DNA of 64,000 bases from Gemmatimonadales bacterium (GCA_044221045.1 JBGAPX010000001.1:56608-120607); one strand, 5' to 3'; positions 10,735-32,222 are shown, counted from the first letter of the stretch. Made by a program: numbers and translations. The notes: generated by a model from the letters alone, not told the origin.

Positions 10735-12300
10735 ATGATCCTCCTCCAGGTCCCGCAGACCACGGTTGGCGCCCCGAGCCTGGTGGCCAAGGGGTTCTTC
10801 TTCCTCTTCCTGGCCACCACCCTCGGCATCACCTGGTGGGCCGCCCGCCGCACCCGCACCACCGAGCACTTCTACACCGCCGGCCGCACCATCACCGCCC
10901 GGCAGAACGGCGTCGCCCTCGCGGGCGACTACATGAGCGCGGCCTCCTTCCTGGGGATCGCGGGGCTGGTGTCGCTCACCGGCTTCGACGGCCTCATCTA
11001 CTCCACCGGCTGGCTGGTGGGGTGGCCGGTGGTGCTGTTCCTCATCGCCGAGCCGCTGCGGAACCTGGGCAAGTACACCTTCGCCGACGCCGTGACCGTC
11101 CGCTTCCGCCAGAAGCCGGTCCGCCTGGCCGCCGCGGTGGGCACGCTGGCCACCGTGACGCTCTACCTCATTGCCCAGATGGTCGGGGCCGGCGGCCTCA
11201 TCCGGCTCCTGTTCGGGCTGTCGTACGAGACGGCGGTGGTGGTGGTGGGCGCGGCGATGATCGCCTACGTGCTCTTCGGCGGCATGCTGGCCACCACCTG
11301 GGTGCAGATCGTCAAGGCGGGGCTGCTGCTCTCGGGGGCGGCGCTGCTGGCCCTCCTGGTGCTGGCCCGCTTCGACTTCAACCCCGCCCGGCTCTTCGCG
11401 GAGGCGAGCGCGCGCCAGGGCGCCGCGGTGCTCTCGCCAGGCAAGCTGGTGGCCAACCCGCTCGACGCCATCTCGCTCGGGCTGGCGCTGATGTTCGGCA
11501 CCGCGGGGCTGCCGCACATCCTGATGCGCTTCTACACCGTGCCCGACGCCCGCGCCGCGCGCGCCTCGGTGTTCTACGCCACCGGGATCATCGGCAGCTT
11601 CTACCTGCTGACCTTCGTGCTCGGCTTCGGCGCCATGGTGCTGGTGGGGCCTGACGCCATCGCGGCGGTGGACGCCGGCGGCAACATGGCGGCGCCGCTG
11701 CTGGCCGAGCTGCTGGGCGGCACCGCCTTCCTCGGGTTCATCGGGGCGGTGGCCTTCGCCACCATCCTGGCGGTGGTGGCGGGCCTCACGCTCTCCGGTG
11801 CCGCCGCGCTCTCCCACGACCTCTGGGTGAACGTGGTGAAGGGCGGCCAGGCCGACGCGCACGAGCAGCTGCGGGTGGCGCGGATCGCCACCCTGCTGCT
11901 GGGCCTCGTGGCGGTGGCGCTCGGCATCACCTTCAAGGGCCAGAACGTGGCCTTCATGGTGGGGCTGGCCTTCGCCATCGCGGCCAGCGGCAACTTCCCG
12001 GCGCTCATCCTCTCCATCTTCTGGCGCGGCGCCACCACCCGCGGCATCGTCACCGGCATGCTCACCGGCACCGGCGCCACCCTGCTGCTCATCGCCCTCT
12101 CGCCCACGGTGCAGGTGGACCTGCTGCACCACGCGGCGGCCTGGTTCCCGCTCAAGAACCCCGCGCTGGTGACCATGCCGCTAGGCTTCCTGTCGGCCAT
12201 CGTGGTCTCGCGCCTCTTCCCGGAGCCGGCCGCGGCGGAGGCGCATGCCCGGGCCCAGCGCCGCGCCGCCCTCGGCCAGGCGGAGGAGCCCGCGGCGTGA
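10735..12300 (+). CDS. actP: cation/acetate symporter ActP (sodium:solute symporter family), copy 1
   Basis: 521 aa; [39 protein letters not shown]. Confidence 0.9.
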
Positions 12301-13805
12301 CCGCGCAGCTCCTCTTCTTCGCGTTCCTCGCCATCACCCTCGGCATCACCTGGTGGGCCGCCCGGAAGACCCGCACCGCCGACCACTTCTACGCCGCCGG
12401 CCGCAGCATCACCGCCCTGCAGAACGGCTTCGCGCTGGCCGGCGACTACATGAGCGCCTCCTCGTTCCTCGGCATCTCGGGGCTGGTGGCGCTCTCCGGC
12501 TTCGACGGGCTCATCTACGCCGCCGGCGGGCTGGTGGGCTGGCCCATCGTGCTGTTCCTCATCGCCGAGCCGCTGCGCAACCTGGGCAAGTACACCTTTG
12601 CCGATGTGCTGGCCGCGCGGCTCCGGCAGGTGCCGGTGCGGCTGGCGGCCGCGGTCGGCACCCTGGCCACGGTGAGCCTCTACCTGATCGCGCAGATGGT
12701 CGGGGCGGGGGGGCTCATCCGGCTCCTGTTCGGGCTGCCGTACGAGGCGGCGGTGGGCATCGTGGGGGTGGCGATGATCGCCTACGTGCTCTTCGGCGGG
12801 ATGCTCGCCACCACCTGGGTGCAGATCGTCAAGGCGGCGCTGCTGCTGGCGGGGGCGCTGCTGCTCACCGGGCTGGTATTGGCGCAGGTCGGAGCCTCGC
12901 CGCTCCGGCTCTTCGCCGCGGCCGCAGCGCTGCAGGGGCTCGCCGTGCTCGCGCCGGGCAAGCTGGTGGCCAACCCGGTGGACGCCATCTCGCTCGGGCT
13001 GGCGCTCATGTTCGGCACGGCGGGGCTGCCGCACATCCTGATGCGCTTCTACACCGTCCCCGACGCGCGCGCCGCGCGGCGCAGCGTGTTCTTTGCCACC
13101 GGGCTCATCGGGCTGTTCTTCCTGCTCACGTTCGTGATCGGGTTCGGGGCCATGTTGCTGGTGGGGCCGGAGGCCATCCGCGCCGCCGATCCCGGCGGCA
13201 ACATGGCGGCGCCGCTGCTGGCCGAGCGGCTGGGGGGCACCGGGCTGCTGGGGTTCGTGGGGGCGGTGGCGTTCGCCACCATCCTGGCGGTGGTGGCGGG
13301 GCTCACGCTCTCCGGCGCGGCGGCGCTTTCCCACGACCTCTGGGTGCACGTGGTGCGGCGCGGCGTGGCCGACCCGGCGGAGGAGCTCCGCGTGGCGCGG
13401 GTGGCCACCCTGGCGCTCGGGGTGCTGGCGGTGGTGCTCGGCATCACGTTCAAGGGCCAGAACGTGGCGTTCATGGTGGGGCTCGCGTTCGCCATCGCGG
13501 CCAGCGGCAACTTCCCGGCGCTGATGCTCACGCTCTTCTGGCGGGGAGCCACCACGCGCGGCGCGGTGGCGGCCATGCTCACCGGCACGGCGGCGACGCT
13601 GCTGCTCATCTACCTCTCGCCCACCATCCAGGTGGACCTGCTGCACCGCGCCGCGGCGCCCTTCCCGCTCAAGAACCCCGCGATCGTCTCGCTGCCGCTC
13701 GGCTTCCTGGCGGGGGTCGTCGTGTCACGGCTGTGGCCGGAGCCAGCGGCGGCGGCGGCGTTCGAGGGGATGGAGCGGAGGGCGGCGGTGGGGGGGGACC
13801 GGTAG
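12297..13805 (+). CDS. actP: cation/acetate symporter ActP, tandem paralog (copy 2)
   Basis: 502 aa; collinear with copy 1 over its whole length with many identical blocks; 4-nt overlap with copy 1 stop. Confidence 0.9.
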
Positions 13806-13849
13806 GGAGGCTGGGCCGGAAGTTCGCGGGAGCGTAGTTCACTGGAGAG

Positions 13850-13884
13850 TTGTCGCGCGACCAGTCGCATCCGTCGCGCGACAA
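13850..13884. promoter_or_regulatory. perfect 12-bp inverted repeat TTGTCGCGCGAC-N11-GTCGCGCGACAA
   Basis: Read directly; 45 nt after actP2 stop and 130 nt before the RHS start; no T-tract, so either terminator-like hairpin or operator. Confidence 0.4.
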
Positions 13885-13899
13885 GGCTGCGACAAGGCC
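13878..13899. promoter_or_regulatory. 11-bp direct repeat GCGACAAGGCT GCGACAAGGCC
   Basis: Read directly; first copy overlaps the right arm of the 12-bp inverted repeat. Confidence 0.3.
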
Positions 13900-13916
13900 T
13901 TCTCCGGGACGGCGAC

Positions 13917-13934
13917 CAGGGCCGCAAGGCCCTG
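13917..13934 (+). other. stable hairpin CAGGGCC-GCAA-GGCCCTG (GNRA tetraloop)
   Basis: 7-bp GC-rich stem with GCAA loop in the actP2/RHS intergenic region. Confidence 0.4.
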
Positions 13935-14016
13935 TGGTGGCGGCGGATAGGCCTTGGGCCGCGTGTGGCACGCCGCATGACATAGCAGGGAGGCATCCCG
14001 ACTCTGGAGCCTCCCC

Positions 14017-17000
14017 GTGTGTTTCCGCCTGCCCTGGCCGCCCCACCACCCCGTTCTTGCCGCCATCCTCACACTCCTTGCCGGCCTCCCCGTCGCGGTG
14101 CGGGGGCAGATCCAGGCCCCGCTCAGCGGGTGCGCCGGCCTCGACATCACCACGACCCCGACGGGCGTGGTCCGGGCACAGAACACGGGCCCGTACAACC
14201 AGACGTTCACGGTCACCAACTGCGGCAGCACCCCCATCACCGGCATCACCCTGACCTGCGAGCAACTCGCCCCGGTTGCTTGCAGCTCGGTAACGCCGAG
14301 CAGCCGCTCAACCCTGGCGGGCGGGGCGTCGTTCACGGTGACGCTCGCCTACTCTGTCGGCAGCCCCGGGATCGGGCAGGCGTACCTGCGCGCCAGCTGG
14401 GGCGAGGATGACTCCGCCATCGGCATTCTGGGGGTGACCGTGCACGGGCCGCCGATCATCCTCCTGGAGCCGGCCGGCGCTTTCCCAGCCAGCCGCGCAG
14501 TGATCCGCAATCGGATGCCGATTCTACGCGCGCTCATCTCCGCGCAGTACTCCGCGATTGACACCACCAAGACTGTCCTGGCCTGGCGCACCGATACCGT
14601 CACCAGGTGGCGGTCCGATTCCTTGACCGTCGCGCGATGGAATCGGGGGGTGGTCGAATGGGCTGTGGATTCGATCCGCGGGCTGAACGGCACCGGAGCC
14701 GATTCGGCACTCATCACGGTGACGGCCTGTGCCGTGAATACCCTCTGCACCACGGTGACGCGTTGGGCCGTCATCCCGAATGACAGTGTGCCACTGGTGG
14801 GCCTCACGGGAGTTCCCACCGGGAACCTCGCGAGTGCCTTTGCCGCCCCTGCCGGTCCCGGGGTGGGATTCTCCGGGGTGGAGGTGGAGACCGGCCTTGC
14901 CACGGTACCCTACTTCTCCATGAATGCCGCACGGAGCCTGAGCCTCGCCTATTCCACCCGGCAGTCCTATCCCCGGGTCACCGTGCCGGTGGATCTCGAG
15001 GTCCGCTGGCCGACCACCGGGGCACCCGACCAGGTGGTGCTCCGGCTCTTCGATGGCGGAACCAAGCTGGACAGCCTCAAGCTCACCAACCCAACCTGTG
15101 CCACCGGCGGCGCCAAGCGATGCCGCGGGGTCCTGCAGGGCGACTTCTCCGCGACGACCTTCCCGACCCCGACCAGGAAATGGCTCAAGGTCGAGGTCTC
15201 CGTCACCGAGGGGGGTGTCACCAAGACCGCGACCGACTCGGTCGAGGCCGCCCTGGTGGACCGCCGGACTACCATGTATGGCTCGGGGTGGTGGCCTTCA
15301 GTGGCATCCAAGCTCGTCGCGGCCGGGCCCGATCGGCTGCTGGTCGGGGCATCGGGAGCGGTGACGGTGTACCGCGGGATCGGGGACAGCCTCTACATCC
15401 CGCCTCCGGGGAGCTTCGTGCACCTGACGAAGACGGCGGCCGGGTGGGCGCTGCGGGCGCGAGGGGACAGCGCGGTGGTTCGCTTCGACAGCTACGGCCG
15501 GCTCGCGGCGGCGGTGGATCGCAACGGCAATCTGGACTCGCTGGTATACAAGGGCGCCACGGACACGCTCTGGAAGGTGCGCGATCCCGTCGGCTCCGAG
15601 ATCAGCCTGACCTACACCTCCGGCAAACTCTCCCAGATCACCACCTCCGGAGGCCGCACGGCCTCAGTGACCGTCAGCAGCGGCCTCCTCACCGCCTTCA
15701 CCCCCGCCTCCGGCAACGGCGGGGGGTACACTTCGACCTTTGCATACCAGTCGGCGGGCTCCGGCACCGGGACCGTCCTGCTGCAGAAGCGGATCGGGGT
15801 GATCGGCGACACGACCGCGCTGACCTACGACCCGGCGCTGAAGTCCCGGCCCACCCAGGTGGCACTCCCGAAGGTTCGGAACGAGTCCGGCACCGAGGTG
15901 GTGCCGACCATCACCTACACCGCCGTGGAAACGCGGGGCATCGGGACCCTGGTCGCACTCGACAGCAGTGGCGCCTACCTCGAAGTCAGGGATCCCAGGG
16001 GCCATTGGACCCGCTCCTGGCCCAACCGCTGGGGACAGGCCCGGCTCACCTGGGACAGCCTGGGGCGGATCGCGCGAATCGCGCACAACGCCGACGGGTT
16101 CGTACGCTGGAGCGAAGGGCAGGTCGCCGACTCGAGCCGGACCTATGTCAACTACGACGACCTCTGGCGCCTGACGCGCCGGTATCTCGTGCGCCCGGCA
16201 GGGGAGGGCGGGGTGCTCCGGCTGGACAGCCTGGTGTACGACGCCAATCACCGGGTCATCCAGCAAGTGGACGCCAGGGGGCAGGTCTGGAAGACGGACT
16301 TCGACACCAAGGGCAATCCCATCCGCTCGATCAGCCCCAATAGCCCGGGGCCTGACACCACCCGGACCTGGTACCGCGGCGATGGCCTGGTGGACTCGGT
16401 GCTGGCGCCGGGTGAGGTTGCTGCGACCGGATTCCGGTACAGCGCTGGGCCCAAGGTCCTGTACCACACCATCACGCCGAGCCGCGATACCGTGACGCGG
16501 AACATGTTCTGGGATGGCTATGGCAGGGTCTACCAGGTGGATCGAAAGGTCGGCGTCGCGCCTGGCCAGGTGCAGTGGCGCCGGGTCCAGACCTTCTACA
16601 GCTCCTCCTCGAACCTGGTGGATTCCACCCGGATCATCCGCACCGAGAGCTGCGACACTCCCTGTGCCACGCCAACCTGGCCCCTCAGTCCGGACACCGA
16701 TTCGATGCAGGTGCAGCGGGTGGGCTTCCGGTACGACAGGGCCGGCCGCGATTCCGCCCGCATCAACGACCGCGGGATCGCCATGGTCAGCATGCTGGAT
16801 CGCCTGGGCCGGGTGATCAGGTCCTACCCGTACGGCCCTGGCGTGGCCGAGGTGGATTCCTTCGCCTACGATGTCGCGGGGAACCTGAGGAAGACCTGGA
16901 CTCGGCGCGGCCACCTGATCACCGCGGACTACGACAGCCGCAACCGGGACACCTTGAGCGTGGTGCCCACGGTGGGCACCCTGAGAAAGGCGTACACCGG

Positions 17001-19074
17001 ACCCCTGGGTCAGCTGACGCGCATCTGGGTGACGGGGCTGGTGGATTCCGTGGGCAACGCTCGTCCCGATGTGAGCCTCATCTACGATCAGCGTGGGCGC
17101 CTCAAGGCGGATACGGTGTGGAGCGGTACCCAGGCACGGGTCACCACCTACGCCACCGATCGGTACGAACGGGACAGCCTGACCACCGACGCGCTGGGCG
17201 CCTGGCGCATCAAGTACGAGACCATCCGGGGCATCGCCGACACGCTGGCCACCCCGCTGGGAGATACCCTGATCCTGAGCTTCGACCGGCGCGGCCGCCT
17301 GGTGGCGGACTCCATCCGGAACGGAGGCCTGCGGCTCAGCAACGCGATGAGCTACACCACGGACGGGAGCCCCCGGCGGTGGTCCACGGCGATGCACCAG
17401 CCGAGCACCTGGCCGGCGGGTGCCGAGGATCAGGACGCGTTGCAGCAGAACACGCTCCCCGCATTGCAGCCCGTATGGAGCCAGAAGCGCGGGTCGGCGG
17501 GCGCCACGGATACCTTGCGGGCGGAGCTGGCCTACGACGGCTGGGAGCGGCTTGCCACCTGGGCGGGCCTCGGCACCCTCAGCGGCGGAGTGGACGAGAC
17601 CTACGCCTTCGACCGGGCGGGCAACCTCAGCGTGACGACCGAAGCCGGGGCCGGCGCCGAGCAGTTCGATGCCAGCACCAACCGCCTGCTGCGCCGCGCC
17701 AATGGGGCGAGCCGCGCCTGGAACTACAGCTACGACGCCGCGGGCAACCTCATCCAGGCCGTGGATTCGGGGACGGTGAGCATCACCTACACCTACGCCT
17801 ACGACGCCCTCAACCGCCTGGTGCGGGTGGCCCAGGGCCCCACGCTGATCGCGCGCTACGCCTACGATGTCCTCGGGCGGCGCATCGCCAAGCGGGTCTA
17901 TGCCGCCGCCACCGGCGGCACGGTGGGCTTCACCCGGTTCGTGTATCACGGCCGCCAGGTGGCCTTCGAGACCGACTCGGCCGGCAGCACCATCGGCACC
18001 AGGTATGTCTGGGGGCCGGGGACCGACAAGCTCTTCGCCTTCCGCACCTCGGCCTCGGTCACGGACCACTATTATGTGGCGACCGACAAGCTCGGGAGCG
18101 TCCACCAGATCATGAAGCGGGACGGGACCTGGGTCATGAGTTACGCCTACGCGCCCTACGGCCGGCTGACAACCACCTTGGGCTCGGGTGTCACCCTCCG
18201 CTACCGGTGGACCGGCCGGGAATACGACGCCGAGACCGGCTGGTACTTCCACCGGGCGCGGTACTACGACCCCGGGCAGCACCGCTTCGTGCAGGAAGAC
18301 CCCGCGGGGCTGGCGGGGGGCGAGAATCGGTATGCGTATGTGGGGGGGCGGGTGCTGGCCCTGCGTGATCCGTCCGGCCGCTGGGGTGAAGCAGGGCCGC
18401 CGCGACCATTCCCAAACCCTTGTGGCAACGGCGGGTGCTACCAAACCGGCATCTACATCGATGGTATGTTTGCCGAGGGTTGGGGCCTCGGGATGATCAC
18501 GACGGGAAGCATCCACGGGCTCTGGATCACCGGGAACGACGCCAGCAACTACGCGCTGATGCGGTCACGGTATGACGTCTACGTTGCCGCATTCAAGCAG
18601 CAACAGGCTACTGGTCAGGCATCCTCCAACCTCGATGTCCAAGCGTTTTGGTCGAACATCGATGCAATGTCTTTCGACGCATTTGCAGCGACCATGACAG
18701 AATGGGCCCGAGGTACTCTTCTGGGCGGGATCCTTGCACCCGCGATAAACAAGGTGTTCTCTCAGGGGCGGATCGGTGTTAGCGATGTGATTGTCGCGGT
18801 GGCCTCACAGATGATTGGGAAGCGGCTTATTGCGACACAGGGCACCGCGCAGGTTGGGCGGACAATCGTCCTGACTTCCGAGGCCGCGAGGGTTGATGCG
18901 GCGTGGGTTGTGGGCCACGAAGTCCTTCACCAACTGCTCGGACTCTACTACGACCCGAATACCGGGGATCTTTCAGGCGAGAACCTAATCAACAATCTCC
19001 TCCGGCAGATGCTCGGCCGGAACCCACACAGCAACTGGTACGATTCGGCCACATGCAGCGCATGCACACCTTAG
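14017..19074 (+). CDS. RHS/YD-repeat polymorphic toxin, 1685 aa, N-terminal signal sequence
   Basis: GTG start; hydrophobic N-terminus PVLAAILTLLAGLPVAVRGQ; many YD units (YDSYGRL, YDANHRV, YDRAGRD, YDVAGNL, YDQRGRL, YDAAGNL, YDALNRL, YDVLGRR); RHS core end RYYDPGQHRFVQEDPAGLAGGENRYAYVGGRVLALRDPSGR. Confidence 0.9.
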   Translation: MCFRLPWPPHHPVLAAILTLLAGLPVAVRGQIQAPLSGCAGLDITTTPTGVVRAQNTGPYNQTFTVTNCGSTPITGITLTCEQLAPVACSSVTPSSRSTLAGGASFTVTLAYSVGSPGIGQAYLRASWGEDDSAIGILGVTVHGPPIILLEPAGAFPASRAVIRNRMPILRALISAQYSAIDTTKTVLAWRTDTVTRWRSDSLTVARWNRGVVEWAVDSIRGLNGTGADSALITVTACAVNTLCTTVTRWAVIPNDSVPLVGLTGVPTGNLASAFAAPAGPGVGFSGVEVETGLATVPYFSMNAARSLSLAYSTRQSYPRVTVPVDLEVRWPTTGAPDQVVLRLFDGGTKLDSLKLTNPTCATGGAKRCRGVLQGDFSATTFPTPTRKWLKVEVSVTEGGVTKTATDSVEAALVDRRTTMYGSGWWPSVASKLVAAGPDRLLVGASGAVTVYRGIGDSLYIPPPGSFVHLTKTAAGWALRARGDSAVVRFDSYGRLAAAVDRNGNLDSLVYKGATDTLWKVRDPVGSEISLTYTSGKLSQITTSGGRTASVTVSSGLLTAFTPASGNGGGYTSTFAYQSAGSGTGTVLLQKRIGVIGDTTALTYDPALKSRPTQVALPKVRNESGTEVVPTITYTAVETRGIGTLVALDSSGAYLEVRDPRGHWTRSWPNRWGQARLTWDSLGRIARIAHNADGFVRWSEGQVADSSRTYVNYDDLWRLTRRYLVRPAGEGGVLRLDSLVYDANHRVIQQVDARGQVWKTDFDTKGNPIRSISPNSPGPDTTRTWYRGDGLVDSVLAPGEVAATGFRYSAGPKVLYHTITPSRDTVTRNMFWDGYGRVYQVDRKVGVAPGQVQWRRVQTFYSSSSNLVDSTRIIRTESCDTPCATPTWPLSPDTDSMQVQRVGFRYDRAGRDSARINDRGIAMVSMLDRLGRVIRSYPYGPGVAEVDSFAYDVAGNLRKTWTRRGHLITADYDSRNRDTLSVVPTVGTLRKAYTGPLGQLTRIWVTGLVDSVGNARPDVSLIYDQRGRLKADTVWSGTQARVTTYATDRYERDSLTTDALGAWRIKYETIRGIADTLATPLGDTLILSFDRRGRLVADSIRNGGLRLSNAMSYTTDGSPRRWSTAMHQPSTWPAGAEDQDALQQNTLPALQPVWSQKRGSAGATDTLRAELAYDGWERLATWAGLGTLSGGVDETYAFDRAGNLSVTTEAGAGAEQFDASTNRLLRRANGASRAWNYSYDAAGNLIQAVDSGTVSITYTYAYDALNRLVRVAQGPTLIARYAYDVLGRRIAKRVYAAATGGTVGFTRFVYHGRQVAFETDSAGSTIGTRYVWGPGTDKLFAFRTSASVTDHYYVATDKLGSVHQIMKRDGTWVMSYAYAPYGRLTTTLGSGVTLRYRWTGREYDAETGWYFHRARYYDPGQHRFVQEDPAGLAGGENRYAYVGGRVLALRDPSGRWGEAGPPRPFPNPCGNGGCYQTGIYIDGMFAEGWGLGMITTGSIHGLWITGNDASNYALMRSRYDVYVAAFKQQQATGQASSNLDVQAFWSNIDAMSFDAFAATMTEWARGTLLGGILAPAINKVFSQGRIGVSDVIVAVASQMIGKRLIATQGTAQVGRTIVLTSEAARVDAAWVVGHEVLHQLLGLYYDPNTGDLSGENLINNLLRQMLGRNPHSNWYDSATCSACTP
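18382..19071 (+). other. variable C-terminal toxin domain of the RHS protein (230 aa) with HExxH motif
   Basis: Starts after RDPSGR; HEVLH at 18916-18930; GC falls to ~52-55% (counted on lines 18601 and 18661) versus ~68-70% in the repeat shell. Confidence 0.7.
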
Positions 19075-19754
19075 TCGTCATCGTCACGCTGCTAGCGCAC
19101 GCATCCAGCGCAGCAGCTCAATTGAGTTCCACCGCAGTCCCGCGTATTTGTTTCGATCGGGACAGGGTGAGAATCCAGTCTCCGCCCAATGGGTATCCGG
19201 GTGGGGGGCCGAGTATTCCGAGGGCGATCGCCGAGGGTCTTCGGACGGGCACAGCCGGTCGCCTGACCCTTACCGGTGGCATGGAGAGTCCGGGCCTTGA
19301 CTCCCTGTGGGCCGCGGACTCGGCAATGGTGGAGGCGGCACTTGCGACAATTGTCGTGGATCCATTCTGGTATTCCGATCAGGATGCGAGGCTGGCTGGA
19401 GCCCTCTACCTCCACTATTCGGGAAGGCCGGGACCAGTCCTTTCAGCTGCACGTCGGACCATTGGTGAGCCGCGGTGGGTCGATGCGCTCAGTTCAATAA
19501 GCACTCCGCTCGACAAGGACCAGGAAAGGCAGGTGCTGCAAGTCGCTTGTGATGCTGCATGGAGGGTATCAGCCTCACTTGCCGACAGCGCCTATTGGGG
19601 TTCACGATTGGACTCAGGACTTCGACCGAATATCGATCTCCTTTTCCTCGCCCACAGCTTACTCAGTGGTGAACCGGCATCCATGATCGCATCCTTCCTG
19701 CTTCGTGCGGCACCGTTCGAGGCTCCGATCCGATTGAGAGGGGATTCAAGGTAG
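19053..19754 (+). CDS. candidate cognate immunity protein, secreted (233 aa)
   Basis: ATG at 19053 lies 22 nt inside the RHS 3' end; signal peptide MQRMHTLVVIVTLLAHASSAAAQ; same reduced GC as the toxin tip; upstream part of ORF 18903..19754 is out-of-frame RHS sequence. Confidence 0.6.
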   Translation: MQRMHTLVVIVTLLAHASSAAAQLSSTAVPRICFDRDRVRIQSPPNGYPGGGPSIPRAIAEGLRTGTAGRLTLTGGMESPGLDSLWAADSAMVEAALATIVVDPFWYSDQDARLAGALYLHYSGRPGPVLSAARRTIGEPRWVDALSSISTPLDKDQERQVLQVACDAAWRVSASLADSAYWGSRLDSGLRPNIDLLFLAHSLLSGEPASMIASFLLRAAPFEAPIRLRGDSR

Positions 19755-19988
19755 TCGCCAATTGTCCGGTACCCATCGGGACTCCGTGCGGATCAATACG
19801 CGGCTCGCGGCGGCGCCACCGCCAGACGACGCTTAAGAGGAGTCCTTGGCGGGATCCGGCCCTTTGTCCGGAAACCCCGATGAACCCGCTACTAGTTTCG
19901 TCTGTCGTACGGCTTCAGCAGAGTACGTCCGCACATCTACCAGCGAGGAACCACTCCGTCCGGGCAATCACTTGGGAGGTGGGCCAGA

Positions 19989-20531
19989 ATGAGACCCGGA
20001 AAGTTCTGGATCGCGGCAGCCGTCGCATCCGCCACCGCGGGAACGCCGTTGGGCAGCGCCGTCTCACCGGTGCCGGGTCTGTGCGATACAAGCGCGGTGG
20101 CGGCGCCCACGGACCCGCGGAGCGTCGCTCTGTGCTGGCTCGTTCGGAAGTACGCGTCGGAGCGGAGCCACCCCGGGCAAGTGCTGCGGCGGGTAGTGTC
20201 AACAGATCTGCTCGGCACCTTCGGGCAGCCCGAGCGCTCACACGATCCGGGATGGCTGGAATCCCTCAGGCCCCTCGGGCTGGCCGAAACCTGTTCTTGG
20301 CGCGGTGCGTCCGAGTGCCCGACTCGCGAAGTCCGCATTCTGCGCGTAGGTGAACACACCACGGACCCAACCGACACCACGAACAGTCGGGTCGAGGTAC
20401 TCGCGGGAGTTACACTCACGACCGAGGATTGGCCGCTGGGCGGCGGCTTCTACCAGACATTTCGCCTGTCGCTGGTACGCTCCGGCCCTGGGTGGCTGCT
20501 CGTTGACAGTCTGCCGGGGGAAGCCAGCTAG
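19989..20531 (+). CDS. secreted hypothetical protein (180 aa) in the low-GC tail of the RHS locus
   Basis: GGGAGGTGG Shine-Dalgarno-like 8 nt before ATG; N-terminal signal-like MRPGKFWIAAAVASATAG; plausible globular composition. Confidence 0.5.
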   Translation: MRPGKFWIAAAVASATAGTPLGSAVSPVPGLCDTSAVAAPTDPRSVALCWLVRKYASERSHPGQVLRRVVSTDLLGTFGQPERSHDPGWLESLRPLGLAETCSWRGASECPTREVRILRVGEHTTDPTDTTNSRVEVLAGVTLTTEDWPLGGGFYQTFRLSLVRSGPGWLLVDSLPGEAS

Positions 20532-20726
20532 GGGCTTGCGCCCGGCATTGTCCGTTCAGGCAGTCCGTGTGGCGGGATGGCAATAGGCTAGGGCGGACCT
20601 CCCCGAAGCAGGACCACCAGGACGCGCAGACCGGCAGCCGGTTCGGACCCGGGGAGAAGCGTCCGAGCTGCGGAGCTGCGCCCCATTCGCCGCAATGGAC
20701 CCGTATCAGCTTAGGCGAGGACTCCG

Positions 20727-22793
20727 CTAGAACCACTCCCCCAGCCGCACGAACATCCCGTTGCGGCCGTCGCGGGTGATGCCGTACTCCACCCGGATCT
20801 GGCCGATCGGCGTGGCGGCGCCCACGCCGACGCGTCCACCGGTCTGCCACCGGCCGCGGGGCACCGCCGGCCCGCCGGTGGCCACCTGCCCCGACACCGC
20901 CGTCACCCGCGCCGAGAGCGGCCCGAAGAGCGGCCGCTCGAACAGGAGCTCCACCGAGACCTCCCGGTCGCCGCGCCGCTCCCCGACATTGAGGCCCGGG
21001 AAGCCGTCCACGCCACCCAGCGGGAAGGTGCGCTGCACCGGCAGGTCGCGGCCCCAGCCGTAGCGCACCGTGGGCGTGAACCGGAGGCCGGCCACCGGGA
21101 AGACCCGCCGCGCCTCGACCTCCACCCGGCGATAGCGGTCGAGCAGCATCCCCTGCGCCCAGATGCCGCTGGGGCGGTAGCGCGGGCCGCTGCTCACCTG
21201 CAGCACGCCGCCCCACGCCGTCCCCTCCGGCGCGCCACCCTCCGCGTGCCAGGTGTGCACCATGCCGCCGACCTCCACCAGCCACTCCCGCCCGAAGCGC
21301 CGCTCCGCGCCCACGATGCCGCTGAGCTCCCGCACCTTGGTGGACGGCAGGCTGCCGCCCTTCTTGTTGAAGACGCGGACCTCCTCCCGCGCGATCATCC
21401 CGCCGAGCAGCGGCCGCTGCAGCAGCCGGCCGACGCCCGCGGTGCGGAAGTTGAGCGCGAGTTCCTGGCGCAGTTCGCCCAGCACCAGGGTGCCGGAGGT
21501 CTCGACGCGGGGAATGGTGGCGCCGCGGTCCACGCCGCCCACCCACATCTGCCCGCCGAGGTCGTTGTCGTACGCCACGCCGGCCACGCCCACCCGCGGC
21601 GCGGAGGTGCGCACCAGCAGGTCGAGGCGCAGCGCGTCGGCGGGACCGGTGGGCCGCAGCCAGACCTCGCGGAACTCGTCGAGCTGCGCCAGGCGCGTGA
21701 GGTAATCGCGCAGCGCCCCGACCTCGAGGTCGTCACCCTCTTTCAGGCGCAGCTGGCGGCGGATCATGGTCTCGTCGCCGGGGCGGCCGCCCGAGAGGCC
21801 GATCTCCGTGACGTGGTAGAGCGGGCTCTGCCGCGGCTCCAGTGGCGGCGCGCCGCAGAAGGTGCGGCCCTCGAGCGCGGCGCGCGCCGCCTCGTAGCCG
21901 GCGTGGCGGATCTCCCGCTGGTGCAGCTCCCCGAAATCGAGCGGCTGGTAGGAGTCCACCGCCGGCCGGATGAGCAGGTCGCCGGCGCCGAGGGAATCGA
22001 GCGGCTGGGTGAAGAGGTAGGAGACCAGCAGGTCGGCCACGACCAGCGGGTTCTCCCCCTGCACCGAGTCGGGGGGCCGCCAGCTCACGTCGCTCACGAT
22101 GAGCCGCGCCGCGCCCTGGGCCCGCGCCACGCTGATCGGCACGTTGGCGGCGAGGCCGCCGTCCACCAGCTGGCGGCCCTCGATGCGCACCGGGTCGAAC
22201 ACCAGCGGGATCGCCATGCTGGCCCGCACCGCGCGGGCCAGGTCGCCGCTCTCGAGCACCACCGCCGCGCGGGTGCGCAGGTCGGTGGCCACGGCGCGGA
22301 AGGGAATCGGCAGGGAATCGAAGCTGCCACGGGCAAAGAGATTGCCGCGGAGCAGGGCGCGATTGAGGGCGGCGTTCACGCCGGCCTCACGCGCGATGGA
22401 CTGCGCCACCCGGAAGCCGCCGGTGCCCTGCTCCCAGACCACCAGCGGGCGCCGGTCGCCCAGGGCGCGCGGGGTGCGCTGGTCGGCGTTGGTGAACAGC
22501 TCGGCCAGGCCCAGCGAGTCGGCGAGTGTCGCGATCTGGGTGGCGCTGTAGCCGCTGGCGTACATCGCGCCCACGATGGACCCCATGCTGGTGCCCACCA
22601 CGAAGTCGGGCCGCACCCCCAGGCTGTCGAGCACCCGGAGCACGCCGATGTGCGCCAGCCCCTTGGCGCCACCGCCCGACAGCACCAGCCCGAGGGGCCC
22701 CCGGTCGGTGCACTCCTGGGCGCGCAGCACGCCCGGCGCGCCCCCGGACAGGAGGGCGATCATGAAGAACACCAACGCGCTATGGCGGGCCAT
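20727..22793 (-). CDS. PlpD-like patatin phospholipase with POTRA/Omp85 beta-barrel (type Vd autotransporter architecture)
   Basis: Start at MARHSALVFFMIALLSGGAPGVLRAQE; patatin motifs GGGAKG, GTSMGS, DGG; C-terminal barrel ending VRLGEWF (terminal aromatic). Confidence 0.85.
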   Translation of the reverse strand: MARHSALVFFMIALLSGGAPGVLRAQECTDRGPLGLVLSGGGAKGLAHIGVLRVLDSLGVRPDFVVGTSMGSIVGAMYASGYSATQIATLADSLGLAELFTNADQRTPRALGDRRPLVVWEQGTGGFRVAQSIAREAGVNAALNRALLRGNLFARGSFDSLPIPFRAVATDLRTRAAVVLESGDLARAVRASMAIPLVFDPVRIEGRQLVDGGLAANVPISVARAQGAARLIVSDVSWRPPDSVQGENPLVVADLLVSYLFTQPLDSLGAGDLLIRPAVDSYQPLDFGELHQREIRHAGYEAARAALEGRTFCGAPPLEPRQSPLYHVTEIGLSGGRPGDETMIRRQLRLKEGDDLEVGALRDYLTRLAQLDEFREVWLRPTGPADALRLDLLVRTSAPRVGVAGVAYDNDLGGQMWVGGVDRGATIPRVETSGTLVLGELRQELALNFRTAGVGRLLQRPLLGGMIAREEVRVFNKKGGSLPSTKVRELSGIVGAERRFGREWLVEVGGMVHTWHAEGGAPEGTAWGGVLQVSSGPRYRPSGIWAQGMLLDRYRRVEVEARRVFPVAGLRFTPTVRYGWGRDLPVQRTFPLGGVDGFPGLNVGERRGDREVSVELLFERPLFGPLSARVTAVSGQVATGGPAVPRGRWQTGGRVGVGAATPIGQIRVEYGITRDGRNGMFVRLGEWF

Positions 22794-29054: not shown

Positions 29055-29830
29055 CACCGCCCAATGAACCCCGTCGGCAGCTCGTACAGGAGCCGCAGCG
29101 AGAACCGGTCCCGGTCGCTCAGGGCCAGCGCCGTGGCGATCGGGTACATCACGTCGTCGGCGCGACTCGAGTGCGGCAGGCCCAGGGCATGCCCGATCTC
29201 GTGCAGCGCCACGGCGCGGCGGCTCTCCGGCGGCAGCGGCCGCCCCGACGACGGGGAGCGGGTCACCAGCGTGAGCACGGTGCGGCGGATCCGGCCCCCG
29301 CGGTCCCAGGTGACGTCGGTGACCCCGGCGCGGTCGGCCTCGAGGGTGTCGGCCCACTGGATGAGGAAGTCGGCCTGGCTGCTGTCGTCCTCCGCCAGCC
29401 AGCGGAGCCCCACCGCGGCGGGGTTCCAGGCGTCGAGGGCCCAGCGCACGTCATTCACCATCTCGGGGAGGAAGCCGCTGGCGCCCCCGGGGACGATGGC
29501 CACCCGGATCACGTGCATGCCCCCGGGCCAGTGCCGCACGATCGAATCGGTCTCGGAGAAGAGCGAGTCGAGGAAGTGCCGTTCCACCTGGGCCTGGAGC
29601 TGGGTGCGGACGCCGACCCGGGAGAGGGAGTCGAGCGGGACGATGCCGGGCAGCTCGAGCGGCGGCCCGGCCCGGTGATCGCGCGCGGGGTCGAGGGTGA
29701 GGTCGGCCCGCGCGGCCGGGGCGGGGGGCGTGCCGGCCGCCGCGCCCGCCGGGCGCGGGGCCTGGAGCCGCTCCCAGACGGCGAGGCCCACCAGGGTGAG
29801 CAGGATCAGCAGCAGCAGGCGGCGGAGCAT
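29054..29830 (-). CDS. matrixin-like zinc metalloprotease (M10 family), membrane-anchored/secreted
   Basis: Start at MLRRLLLLILLTLVGLAVW inside ORF 29054..30007; HEIGHALGLPHS zincin motif. Confidence 0.8.
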   Translation of the reverse strand: MLRRLLLLILLTLVGLAVWERLQAPRPAGAAAGTPPAPAARADLTLDPARDHRAGPPLELPGIVPLDSLSRVGVRTQLQAQVERHFLDSLFSETDSIVRHWPGGMHVIRVAIVPGGASGFLPEMVNDVRWALDAWNPAAVGLRWLAEDDSSQADFLIQWADTLEADRAGVTDVTWDRGGRIRRTVLTLVTRSPSSGRPLPPESRRAVALHEIGHALGLPHSSRADDVMYPIATALALSDRDRFSLRLLYELPTGFIGR

Positions 29831-29957
29831 GGACGGGGAATATCGGGCCCCGGGCGATCCGGGCGCCACCGCTGGCGCCCAAGTGTGTGTCCCCCTAGAA
29901 TTTCGCCGACCGCACAGCCCCTGTCCGCCCCCGTCCCATCCGGGAGTTCTCCCGCTC

Positions 29958-32222
29958 GTGGCTTCCGTCCTGTCGCGCGCCCTGATCCGCTGGCGCTGGG
30001 CCATCATCGTCGTCTGGGCGGTGATCGGCTACGTCGCGGCGGAGAAGTCCCCCCAGGTCGTGCAGGTGCTCAACGTGCGCGGCGGCACCCGGGAGCCCAC
30101 CGAGGCGGGCGCGGCCGACATCCTGCTCCGGACGCGCTTCGCGCGGCCGCTCAACGACTTCTTCGCCGTCACCCTCGAGGCGCCCGCGCCGGTGGACAGC
30201 GGGCCCGGCGCGCTGCTGCTCGACAGCCTCCTCGCCAAGTTCGGGCGCCAGCCCTGGCTCGGCACCGTCGCGTCGTTCCGGAGCACCGGCGATTCCACGT
30301 TCATCAGCGGGGACGGCCGCACCACCTTCGTGGTGGTGGCGGTGAACGCGGACAAGGGCGACAGCGTGGCGAAGCTGGTGGCACCGGTCCGCGCCCTGGT
30401 GCAGGAGTCGTTCCGGCAGACGGGGGTGGATAGCGCCACGCACCGGGTCCGGGTCACCGGCCGCTCCCCGCTCGACCTCGACGTGCGCACCGTGGTGGCC
30501 GCCGACAGCAAGCGGGGGGAGCTCCGCCTGCTGCCGCTCACGGCGGGGATCCTGCTGCTCGCCTTCGGGGCGCTGGTGGCGGCGGTGCTGCCGCTCATCA
30601 TCGGGTTCCTGGCCATCTGGGTCACCCTCGCGGTGGTGGTGATCCTCGCCGACTACACGCCGATGTCGGTCTTCGTGCTCAACATGACGACCATGCTCGG
30701 CCTCGGCGTGGGCATCGACTACTCCCTGCTCATCGTCACCCGCTTCCGCGAGGAGCTCAACCGCGGGCTGCGGCGCCAGGAGGCGGCCGCCCGCGCGCTC
30801 AGCACCGCCGGCGCCGCGGTGCTCACCTCGGGGATGACGGTGGTGGTGGGCTTCGCGGCGCTGCTGCTCACGCCGCTGGTGGAGACCCAGTCGGTGGGGA
30901 TCGGCGGGCTGGTGGTGGTGGCGGTCGCCGTGGCGCTCTCGACCACGCTGCTCCCGGCGCTGCTGGCGGTGCTGGGCCGGCAGATCGACCGGCCCCGCTG
31001 GCTGGCGCGGCGGCTCACCTGGTACCACGCCCCCGGCGCCTGGGAGAAGTGGGCCCGCAGCCTCTCCCGCAACCCGCTCCGCGCCCTCACCCTCGGCGGG
31101 ACGGTGATCGCGCTGCTCACTGCCCCGGTGTTCTGGATCCGGATCGGGCTGCCGGCCCGCAACTGGTGGCCCACCGCCACGGAGGCCGGCCAGGGGGTGC
31201 AGACCCTCGAGGCCATGGGCGTGGCCAACATCATCCTGCCGGTGCGGATGGTGATCGAGCTGCCCGAGGGCCAGAGCGCGGTCTCCGCGGCCAGCCTGCG
31301 CGGGCTCCGGGCGCTGTCCGATTCGCTCAAGGCCGACGGCCGGGTGGCCCAGGTGCGCAGCCTGGTGGACCTCGAGCCGGGGATGGGCATCCTCGAGTAC
31401 TCGATCCTCTACGGCAACCTCGAGGACGCCCGCGCCCGCTACGGCGGCTTCCTCGACGCCTACCTCTCCACCGACCAGCGGGTGACGCTGATCGACGTGG
31501 TGCTCCGGGACACCACCAGCCTCACCTCGGGGATGGACCTCTCGCGCCACGCGCGGACCCTGGCCCGGACCCCGCCCAAGCAGCTGCGCGGCGCCACGAT
31601 CGTGGTGGGGGGCTACACCGCGGCGAGCCTCGACCTGCAGGACGTGCTGCTGCGCCGCTTCCCGATGCTGGTGGTGCTGATCCTGGGCTGCACCGGGCTC
31701 ATGCTCGCCATCGTGTTCCGCTCCGTGCTGGTGCCGATCAAGGCGGTCATCATGAACACCCTCTCGGTGAGTGCCACCTTCGGCCTCATCGTGCTGGTGT
31801 TCCAGCACGGCATCGGCGCCGGCCTCTTCGGCCTCGACGGCCCCACCTCGGCCATCTTCGTGGTGGTCCCGGTGCTGGTCTTCGCCGTGGTGTTCGGCCT
31901 CAGCATGGACTACGAGGTGTTCCTGCTGGCCCGGGTCAAGGAGGCGTTCGACAAGACCGGCAACAACGAGAAGGCCACCGAGGAGGGGCTCTCGGCCACC
32001 GCCTCGGTGATTACCAGCGCGGCGCTGATCATGATCCTGGTCTTCGGGGTGTTCGCCTTCGCCCGGGTGCTGGCGATGCAGTTCCTGGGCTTCGGGCTGG
32101 CGGTCGCGGTGCTGCTCGACGCCACGATCATCCGGATGGTGCTGGTGCCCGCCATCATGCACCTGGCGGGCGAATGGAACTGGTGGCCGGGCTACCGGCG
32201 CAAGCCCAAGGCCACGACATGA
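29958..32222 (+). CDS. MMPL-family (RND superfamily) membrane transporter
   Basis: GTG start (VASVLSRALIRWRWAIIVVWAVIG) inside ORF 29697..32222; two 6-TM bundles with GVGIDYSLLIVTRFREE and GLSMDYEVFLLARVKE. Confidence 0.85.
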   Translation: MASVLSRALIRWRWAIIVVWAVIGYVAAEKSPQVVQVLNVRGGTREPTEAGAADILLRTRFARPLNDFFAVTLEAPAPVDSGPGALLLDSLLAKFGRQPWLGTVASFRSTGDSTFISGDGRTTFVVVAVNADKGDSVAKLVAPVRALVQESFRQTGVDSATHRVRVTGRSPLDLDVRTVVAADSKRGELRLLPLTAGILLLAFGALVAAVLPLIIGFLAIWVTLAVVVILADYTPMSVFVLNMTTMLGLGVGIDYSLLIVTRFREELNRGLRRQEAAARALSTAGAAVLTSGMTVVVGFAALLLTPLVETQSVGIGGLVVVAVAVALSTTLLPALLAVLGRQIDRPRWLARRLTWYHAPGAWEKWARSLSRNPLRALTLGGTVIALLTAPVFWIRIGLPARNWWPTATEAGQGVQTLEAMGVANIILPVRMVIELPEGQSAVSAASLRGLRALSDSLKADGRVAQVRSLVDLEPGMGILEYSILYGNLEDARARYGGFLDAYLSTDQRVTLIDVVLRDTTSLTSGMDLSRHARTLARTPPKQLRGATIVVGGYTAASLDLQDVLLRRFPMLVVLILGCTGLMLAIVFRSVLVPIKAVIMNTLSVSATFGLIVLVFQHGIGAGLFGLDGPTSAIFVVVPVLVFAVVFGLSMDYEVFLLARVKEAFDKTGNNEKATEEGLSATASVITSAALIMILVFGVFAFARVLAMQFLGFGLAVAVLLDATIIRMVLVPAIMHLAGEWNWWPGYRRKPKATT

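Follow-up and report, generated by a model that had tools for sequence, protein, structure and literature searches.

A candidate toxin/immunity cassette with an HExxH tip on a probably Sec-dependent RHS shell of a Gemmatimonadales bacterium

The stretch analysed here, a window of 64,000 nucleotides from a soil-type Gemmatimonadales bacterium (GCA_044221045.1 JBGAPX010000001.1:56608-120607), carries a gene for an RHS/YD-repeat polymorphic toxin whose C-terminal tip and overlapping downstream open reading frame (ORF) lie together on DNA of low GC content (Table 1). This cassette is best explained as a horizontally exchanged tip and immunity unit of a Gemmatimonadales RHS, and tip and downstream ORF very probably form a cognate RHS toxin/immunity pair. 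The RHS protein matches PF05593 in four stretches (E 2e-13) in a Pfam scan, TIGR01643 YD repeats in an NCBIfam scan, and TIGR03696 (Rhs_assc_core; E 7e-20) over aa 1378-1454, equivalent to model positions 1-75 of 76, and the public record of an identical protein carries PF25023 (TEN_YD-shell). An identical, intact RHS protein is present on at least 23 metagenome contigs from many samples, and the nearest relatives in a genome scan with the shell C-terminus are Gemmatimonadales metagenome-assembled genomes at 76, 71 and 49-56% identity. At the N-terminus, a probable Sec signal peptide (PVLAAILTLLAGLPVAVRG, mean Kyte-Doolittle hydropathy 1.79 over 19 residues) retains ...LRG/Q at the matching position in RHS paralogues and orthologues, and is followed by about 450 aa that are conserved in relatives and show only a weak DUF7507 match. 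The core ends in ...RVLALRDPSGR, with DPSGR at aa 1451-1455 and W1456 at nt 18382; the presence of this motif together with RARYYDPGQHRFVQEDPAG suggests that the core aspartyl autoprotease may cleave at DPSG(R)/W1456 and release the tip. A YD shell, a core with a DPxG-type end, exchanged tips and a downstream partner gene, as expected of an RHS toxin, are all found.

The window has a mean GC content of 71.5%; of all 1250-bp stretches in its 64 kb, the one beginning at 18451 is the lowest in GC, about 4 standard deviations under the mean. The original prediction, made from the DNA alone, had announced a GC drop to 52-55%; the drop is real, begins near 18400 and is the lowest stretch of the window, but its depth is 58-60% on average, with 52% reached in single 100-bp bins only. 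That prediction had also described an RHS tip with an HExxH motif behind the core and an overlapping downstream ORF with a Sec-type leader, and both descriptions hold: ORF translation and TIGR03696 bear out all coordinates of the tip, the downstream ORF overlaps the RHS end by 22 nt, the RHS stop codon (19072-19074) included, and its leader is canonical by rules. This immunity candidate is read here from the first ATG, a second ATG at 19062 (230 aa) being chosen by some gene callers. Its leader comprises a positive n-region (MQRMH), an h-region (TLVVIVTLLA) that falls within the usual 8-12 residues and has a mean Kyte-Doolittle hydropathy of 2.89 over 10 residues, and a c-region (HASSAAA/QL) with small residues at -3 and -1, the rule-based hallmarks of a Sec substrate of signal peptidase I (SPase I). 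An identical immunity protein is found on at least 18 metagenome contigs, and it has no match in Pfam, NCBIfam, PHROGs or PADLOC.

Table 1. Features of the RHS locus, with positions counted from the first nucleotide of the window. GC3, GC fraction at third codon positions.
Feature	Coordinates	Strand	GC (%)	GC3	Description
RHS/YD-repeat polymorphic toxin gene	14017-19074	+		0.86	1685 aa, single long ORF; GC3 in frame
Probable Sec signal peptide of RHS	14017-14106	+			aa 1-30, ...LLAGLPVAVRG/QIQ, rule-based
Shell			68.8	0.88	
RHS-associated core domain	18148-18381	+			aa 1378-1455; ends in cleavage-site motif DPSGR; contains RARYYDPGQHRFVQEDPAG (aa 1413-1431)
Tip	18382-19071		58.2	0.68	230 aa after DPSGR
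Post-core linker module type A	18382-18483	+	61.7	0.675	aa 1456-1489, WGEAGPPRPFPNPCGNGGCYQTGIYIDGMFAEGW, Cys pair; common to tips with unrelated toxin domains
Variable toxin domain	18484-19071	+			aa 1490-1685; part homologous to L034 tip, about 18652-19071
HEVLH (H1634, E1635, H1638)	18916-18930	+			aa 1634-1638; candidate zinc-binding/catalytic motif
Residues downstream of motif, conserved with L034	18952-19056	+			D1646-x-N-x-G, E1655, N1669-x-H1671, D1676, C1680; candidate third metal ligands
Cognate immunity candidate (downstream ORF)	19053-19754	+	59.9	0.605	233 aa, ATG 19053, stop 19752-19754
Sec-type signal peptide of immunity candidate	19053-19118	+			aa 1-22, cleavage AAA/QL, rule-based
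Conserved flanking ORF (ORF180)	19989-20531	+	67.6		180 aa; weakly hydrophobic, Ala-rich N-terminus

The last 230 residues of the RHS protein had been regarded as one variable domain, which is correct as to the length of the tip but not as to its first 34 residues. An exhaustive phmmer search with the tip against 1.84e9 representatives recovered the shared linker only, its sole matches being P0002 and P0003, two RHS fragments that cover tip residues 1-40 and 1-96, respectively; their shell is almost identical and a related stretch (QWAEGGPPQPFQDPCPGFDTCYEHGIEIDGVFVKGW) follows the core, beyond which the sequences are quite unlike, and the linkers by themselves align with Smith-Waterman z scores of 23-24. 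Since both fragments match the linker and then diverge, tip residues 1-34 constitute a shared linker and the toxin proper starts at about aa 1490. The middle of the tip is Gly/Ala-rich and moderately hydrophobic. No transmembrane segment was found in the tip, where the highest mean hydropathy of any 19-residue window is 1.26, and a pore-forming or membrane-inserting tip was rejected, no window reaching the transmembrane threshold. HEVLH is the sole HExxH of the whole RHS protein, with about 0.002 occurrences expected in the tip from composition, and lies 13 residues downstream of GRTIVLT (18856-18876). In single-sequence AlphaFold2 (AF2) models of the tip and of the mature immunity protein, the order of elements in the tip (predicted local distance difference test, pLDDT, 34.6) is helices, strands, the HExxH helix and a helix with E1655, which would, at this low confidence, be compatible with what PMC3482391 and PMC6899460 describe as the zincin core, while the mature immunity candidate is mostly helical (pLDDT 40.0).

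A relative of both partners was obtained by scanning metagenome contigs by shell instead of by tip. This contig, L034 (WBZN01001540.1, Gemmatimonadales), encodes a shell 79% identical to that of the window and an RHS protein ending in ...GRWTILTPALFGRGPLGNIVVHESIHFFHPDWNEGKVCWETNRHAIDRVSCN. BLASTP aligns the two tips at 29% identity over 95 aa (E 0.002), the part in common being approximately the last 140 aa, and the toxin parts give a Smith-Waterman z score of 6.2, their alignment score being equalled by 0 of 300 shuffles. The alignment pairs VVGHEVLH with IVVHESIH and GRTIVLT with GRWTILT, and thus HExxH is present in both tips along with an upstream GR-x-I/V-L-T strand-like motif. Directly behind the L034 tip, an ORF (4254/4293-4997) is homologous to the immunity candidate (33% identity over 98 aa, E 1e-9, z 12.8); it begins with a hydrophobic segment (WWLILGMGACAPAAGLAQ), and the two homologues have the motifs G-x-PGP-L and CDAAW in common as well as two cysteines at similar positions. 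The co-occurrence of the L034 tip and this downstream homologue indicates that the immunity ORF is a real gene that travels with its tip type, and that HExxH survives down to 29% identity. The L034 cassette has a GC content of 55-62%, compared with about 69% in its flanks. A further small ORF of L034 (6158-6634, 158 aa, low GC) lies downstream of the ORF180 equivalent, and its N-terminal 85 aa resemble the N-terminus of the window immunity candidate (window 19062-19310; 29% identity, E 1e-4, z 7.5), the match covering the leader ...HAS..AQ.SST.V and a YPGGG motif. The C-terminal part of the immunity candidate matches the other L034 ORF instead, and since the two parts match different ORFs, the immunity genes seem to be mosaics with a common leader module.

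The survey was extended to 12 complete tips on homologous shells (49-96% identical), all of them distinct and drawn from the window, L011-L017, L034, L035, L037, P0002 and P0003. HExxH occurs in half of them (6/12), 31-60 residues from the C-terminus, where about 0.002 would be expected per tip. The window and L034 tips make up one HExxH family; L012, L035 and L037 (z 7-11), with L017 as a marginal member, make up another with the signature G-[LV]-P...HExxH...[YW]-E-[ND]. Membership of the window tip in this second family was considered and rejected, pairwise z scores being at most 2.0 and the hhalign probability 16%. The ORFs downstream of the second family are related to one another (L035-L037 z 5.9, L012-L037 z 3.6) and unrelated to that of the window; each toxin family thus has its own partner family, and the two co-vary. 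A hydrophobic N-terminus is predicted for the ORFs downstream of all six HExxH tips, and among the partners of the remaining tips, that of L011 is multi-pass and that of L015 anchored at its N-terminus. The cysteine count is even (2-14) in 12/12 tips, for which the probability would be about 2e-4 if parity were random, and this, together with the cysteines kept in the immunity homologues, suggests disulfide-bonded proteins working outside the cytoplasm. Two linker types were distinguished, type A (C-x4-C) on the window RHS, P0002 and P0003 and type B (CC) on L034, L035 and L011; as the linker types assort independently of the toxin domain, the tips are themselves mosaics.

Other observations were made on these relatives. 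H-x-H-P...S-x-x-D occurs in the tips of P0002, P0003 and L036 (FHGHPGGDPTFSPGD and VHSHPNAGKPW...SGTFGD); judged by eye, it is similar to a JAB/MPN metalloprotease signature, with no match in Pfam, and P0003 includes a stretch that reads like frameshifted shell. In the two closest genome relatives (L011 and L012), a second RHS gene stands in tandem right after the first tip/immunity cassette (L011 8461-11682 and 11537-13003; L012 8815-13071), that of L011 being apparently split across frames, whereas the window RHS is single. An IS3-type transposase gene (rve, rve_3, HTH_21) is located right behind the related RHS tip/immunity cassette of L037 (1936-3240, minus strand), and an IS3-type element is a possible vehicle of cassette movement.

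Searches by the tip itself yielded no family. Scanned for the whole tip, for its final 90 aa and for the immunity candidate and ORF180, Pfam (to E 10), NCBIfam, PHROGs and PADLOC returned only noise (OCRE, PfpI and Cnd3); querying 5.8e9 clusters by word index with the tip sequence, at E 1e-3 and again at E 10, returned nothing, as did a scan of JGI metagenomes, tblastn against plasmids returned noise only, and Foldseek against the PDB with the low-confidence tip and immunity models gave no match at E <= 0.001. The negative result of the word-indexed search is weak evidence for the tip, since that search missed the window's own RHS protein, itself a cluster representative; the L034 immunity homologue (42.7 bits), although contained in the collection, escaped it as well. 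Clustering at 50% identity groups RHS proteins by shell and hides their tips. The relatives were missed because RHS proteins cluster by shell and matches of about 40 bits are not significant among 10^9 sequences; the lesson for method is that very large protein searches missed the sole relatives, which were found by looking behind homologous shells. The further claims of the original prediction can be judged against these results. Its statement that the tip was unassignable to a known toxin family agrees with the lack of any match in Pfam, NCBIfam, PHROGs, PADLOC and the PDB, and its expectation of a tip/immunity module displaced on an RHS shell is upheld by the low-GC cassette, the 12 tips and the co-variation of tip and partner with L034; the survey of alternative tips that it proposed accordingly produced those 12. 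Its suggestion of a zinc metallopeptidase gains from the conservation of HExxH in the L034 homologue and stands without a zincin profile match, and the modelling and fold search that it recommended were carried out with AF2 and Foldseek and proved uninformative.

Sec-dependent RHS/YD polymorphic toxins constitute a 'T2SS'-type class (type II secretion system; Zhang et al. 2012, PMC3482391), of which B. subtilis WapA/WapI is the studied example. To judge from its sequence, the window RHS belongs to this class, in a diderm: like the known members, it has a signal peptide, a YD shell, a DPxG core end, a swappable tip and, behind it on a cassette of distinct composition, a small immunity gene. Unlike them, it is encoded by a diderm host (Gemmatimonadales), its N-terminal 450 aa are clade-specific with Ig-like features (the weak DUF7507 match), its immunity candidate is predicted to be exported and not cytoplasmic, and its toxin domain does not belong to a nuclease family. 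PAAR and VgrG-type domains were absent from the RHS protein in Pfam and NCBIfam, no family of type VI secretion (T6SS) matched in a scan of approximately 29 larger window ORFs, equivalent to about three quarters of its high-GC3 frames, and the protein does not have the makings of a T6SS-delivered Rhs effector. HExxH toxin domains on RHS C-termini are well known and include Tox-MPTase1-5, HopH1/Peptidase M91 and PVC-metallopeptidase (PMC3482391); Rhs-M91 of Salmonella Dublin is T6SS-delivered (PMC13556075). The window tip resembles these zincin tips as a small, putatively alpha+beta domain at the extreme C-terminus with an HExxH and a following acidic residue (GEN here; 'HExxH, [DE]N' in HopH1), and differs from Tox-MPTase, HopH1 and M91 in the absence of detectable profile similarity to these Pfam families; also, most Tox-MPTase/M91-type RHS tip families have no described immunity protein. 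The closest functional precedent, and the model proposed for the window pair, is VgrG2b/PA0261 of Pseudomonas aeruginosa, in which the HExxH domain of VgrG2b is toxic only in the periplasm, E936A abolishes toxicity and the immunity protein PA0261 needs its signal peptide (PMC6899460), although VgrG2b is fused to a T6SS spike, not to an RHS shell, and PA0261 is a lipoprotein. T6EC12, an HExxH effector on a new scaffold, is associated with a T6SS, consists of two domains and shows toxicity in the cytoplasm too (bioRxiv 10.64898/2026.09.28.754971); likened by description, the window tip shares with it an orphan scaffold and an HExxH followed at short distance by conserved acidic residues (D +7/E +36 in T6EC12, D +8/E +17 in the window tip). 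The type of system is therefore textbook, while tip and partner, as far as profile and sequence comparison goes, are in no described family.

A mechanism may be proposed from these features. The RHS precursor would cross the inner membrane via Sec by means of its N-terminal leader; the YD shell would then enclose the C-terminal tip and, as is known of the family, the core aspartyl autoprotease would cut at DPSG(R)/W1456. The freed piece of 230 aa would consist of the 34-aa Cys-pair linker and a soluble toxin domain of 150-190 aa, in which H1634-E1635-x-x-H1638 with one of D1646, E1655 and H1671 could form a zinc metallopeptidase site that acts extracytoplasmically in neighbouring bacteria, in their periplasm or envelope. 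The mostly helical partner of about 211 aa, exported by its own Sec leader, would neutralise the toxin in the periplasm of the producer, as its position, its co-variation with the tip and its export signal suggest. In the Sec-exported CdiA/CdiI (contact-dependent inhibition, CDI) and WapA/WapI systems, the immunity proteins are cytoplasmic, where the toxins act (PMC3150448), and the export of the window partner, by contrast with CDI and WapA immunity, is hence informative on the site of action.

The full model, that of a Sec-exported RHS toxin whose tip is zincin-like and acts in the envelope and whose immunity protein is periplasmic, is held with a probability of roughly 0.55, and a number of points weigh against it. 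D1646, E1655 and H1671 are all conserved with L034 and none is singled out as the third zinc ligand; the conservation of the motif comes from one homologue, L034, and hhalign between the two HExxH families aligns the motif only. The tip has no profile match to zincin families, the Pfam models of Tox-MPTase1-5 and M91/HopH1 included, PDB sequence searches found nothing for the tip, whether whole or cut to its last 110 aa, for the immunity candidate or for two-sequence profiles (A3/A4), and the AF2 models, at the pLDDT values given above, are unusable, which leaves the fold searches uninformative. Both signal peptides were judged by rules, and the hydrophobicity measure is high for some cytoplasmic proteins as well (SufD 2.52). 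Finally, the immunity ORF was left uncalled on six ENA contigs by some gene callers, and its GC3 is not above its GC1 (GC fraction at first codon positions). The profile and fold results leave the tip an orphan at the sequence level and, with conservation defined by two sequences and a Gly/Ala-rich, moderately hydrophobic middle of the tip, they lend some weight to a genuine envelope-acting RHS pair whose toxin is not a peptidase, with HExxH serving as a structural element or as a metal site for glycan-, lipid- or lipid II-directed chemistry. This alternative is considered clearly less probable than the peptidase model, as HExxH is kept at 29% identity in the typical small/hydrophobic context before the motif and is strongly enriched among sister tips, and as a soluble exported immunity protein suits an enzyme inhibitor better than a guard against a pore former. 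Immunity proteins against pore formers are usually membrane-embedded.

The location of the target leaves room for a different, rather unlikely explanation, according to which the toxin acts in the cytoplasm of the target or on a non-bacterial target, and the exported partner only guards the periplasm of the producer while the toxin is being exported, or else is some accessory protein or secretion factor. The RHS protein itself passes the periplasm by Sec, so a guard could be needed whatever the final target, and the scanned window ORFs contain no T6SS genes; immunity location, however, normally follows the site of action of the toxin, as in CdiA/CdiI and WapA/WapI, the even cysteine counts in all surveyed tips point to folding in an oxidising compartment, and tip and downstream ORF co-vary as cognate pairs. 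That the 233-aa ORF might be a chance frame in lower-GC DNA, and the tip a decaying, functionless orphan end, is very improbable: the missed gene calls, the low GC3 and the lack of family matches would fit such an account, yet a homologue stands at the equivalent position behind the L034 tip, the probability that a frame stays open for 233-283 codons at 60% GC is calculated at about 1e-4 to 6e-4 for each frame, the ORF begins with a canonical leader peptide, and the RHS ORF is intact and identical across the contigs on which it was found.

Around the cassette, ORF180 is 67% identical to L034 5468-6010 at the equivalent position; this identity at both loci marks it as a conserved flanking gene outside the swapped cassette. 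It has no family match in Pfam, NCBIfam, PHROGs or PADLOC and looks like a conserved secreted neighbour of the RHS locus. A convergent patatin gene lies downstream of it, and the rest of the window is core chromosome, with a suf operon, polA, dnaN, yidC with a periplasmic domain and Ser/Thr kinases. Supposed orphan RHS core remnants downstream were dismissed as compositional noise only, neither tRNA genes in the window nor repeats flanking the island described below were found, and promoter and terminator scans found none. Directly upstream of the RHS gene are two tandem sodium:solute symporter (SSF) paralogues (10735-12300 and 12297-13805) with about 83% DNA identity and overlapping stop and start codons. 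Further away, an ORF with a C-terminal matrixin (Peptidase_M10) match (29057-30007, minus strand) overlaps the 5' part of an MMPL transporter ORF (29697-32222, plus strand), and the gene boundaries at 29057-32222 need proper calling. Comparison of five ENA contigs from different samples revealed zero single nucleotide polymorphisms (SNPs) across 13806-20726 (6.9 kb, comprising the RHS gene, the cassette and ORF180), against 47 variable sites in the upstream symporter genes (flank 11017-13805) and 9, mostly synonymous, in the patatin gene (flank 20727-22074); these contigs were chosen for an identical RHS protein, and the symporter paralogues, at their level of identity, may cause contigs to be assembled as chimeras. 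That the SNP-free island was recently swept or acquired is hence no more than a possibility. With no SNPs in the island, population variation offered no test of coding constraint on the immunity ORF.

It is conceivable, though on present evidence doubtful, that tip and partner found a new toxin/immunity family, with an undescribed fold (either a minimal zincin of great divergence or an HExxH scaffold other than a zincin), an envelope target and a T6SS-free, Sec-dependent RHS route uncharacterised in diderms. On this reading, such a route would seem widespread among Gemmatimonadales, half of the surveyed tips being HExxH tips with exported partners. To our knowledge, there is almost no experimental work on interbacterial antagonism in Gemmatimonadota. 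The interest of the locus lies in its orphan scaffold, in how abundant HExxH tips paired with exported partners appear to be on Sec-dependent RHS proteins of an unstudied diderm phylum, and in the route of delivery across outer membranes. If confirmed, the pair would enlarge the catalogue of polymorphic toxins by a so far unclassified toxin domain that acts in the envelope, along with the exported immunity protein that matches it, and the clade, with one shell, at least 12 tips and two linkers, provides a compact natural series for the question of how Sec-exported RHS proteins reach the diderm periplasm without a T6SS.

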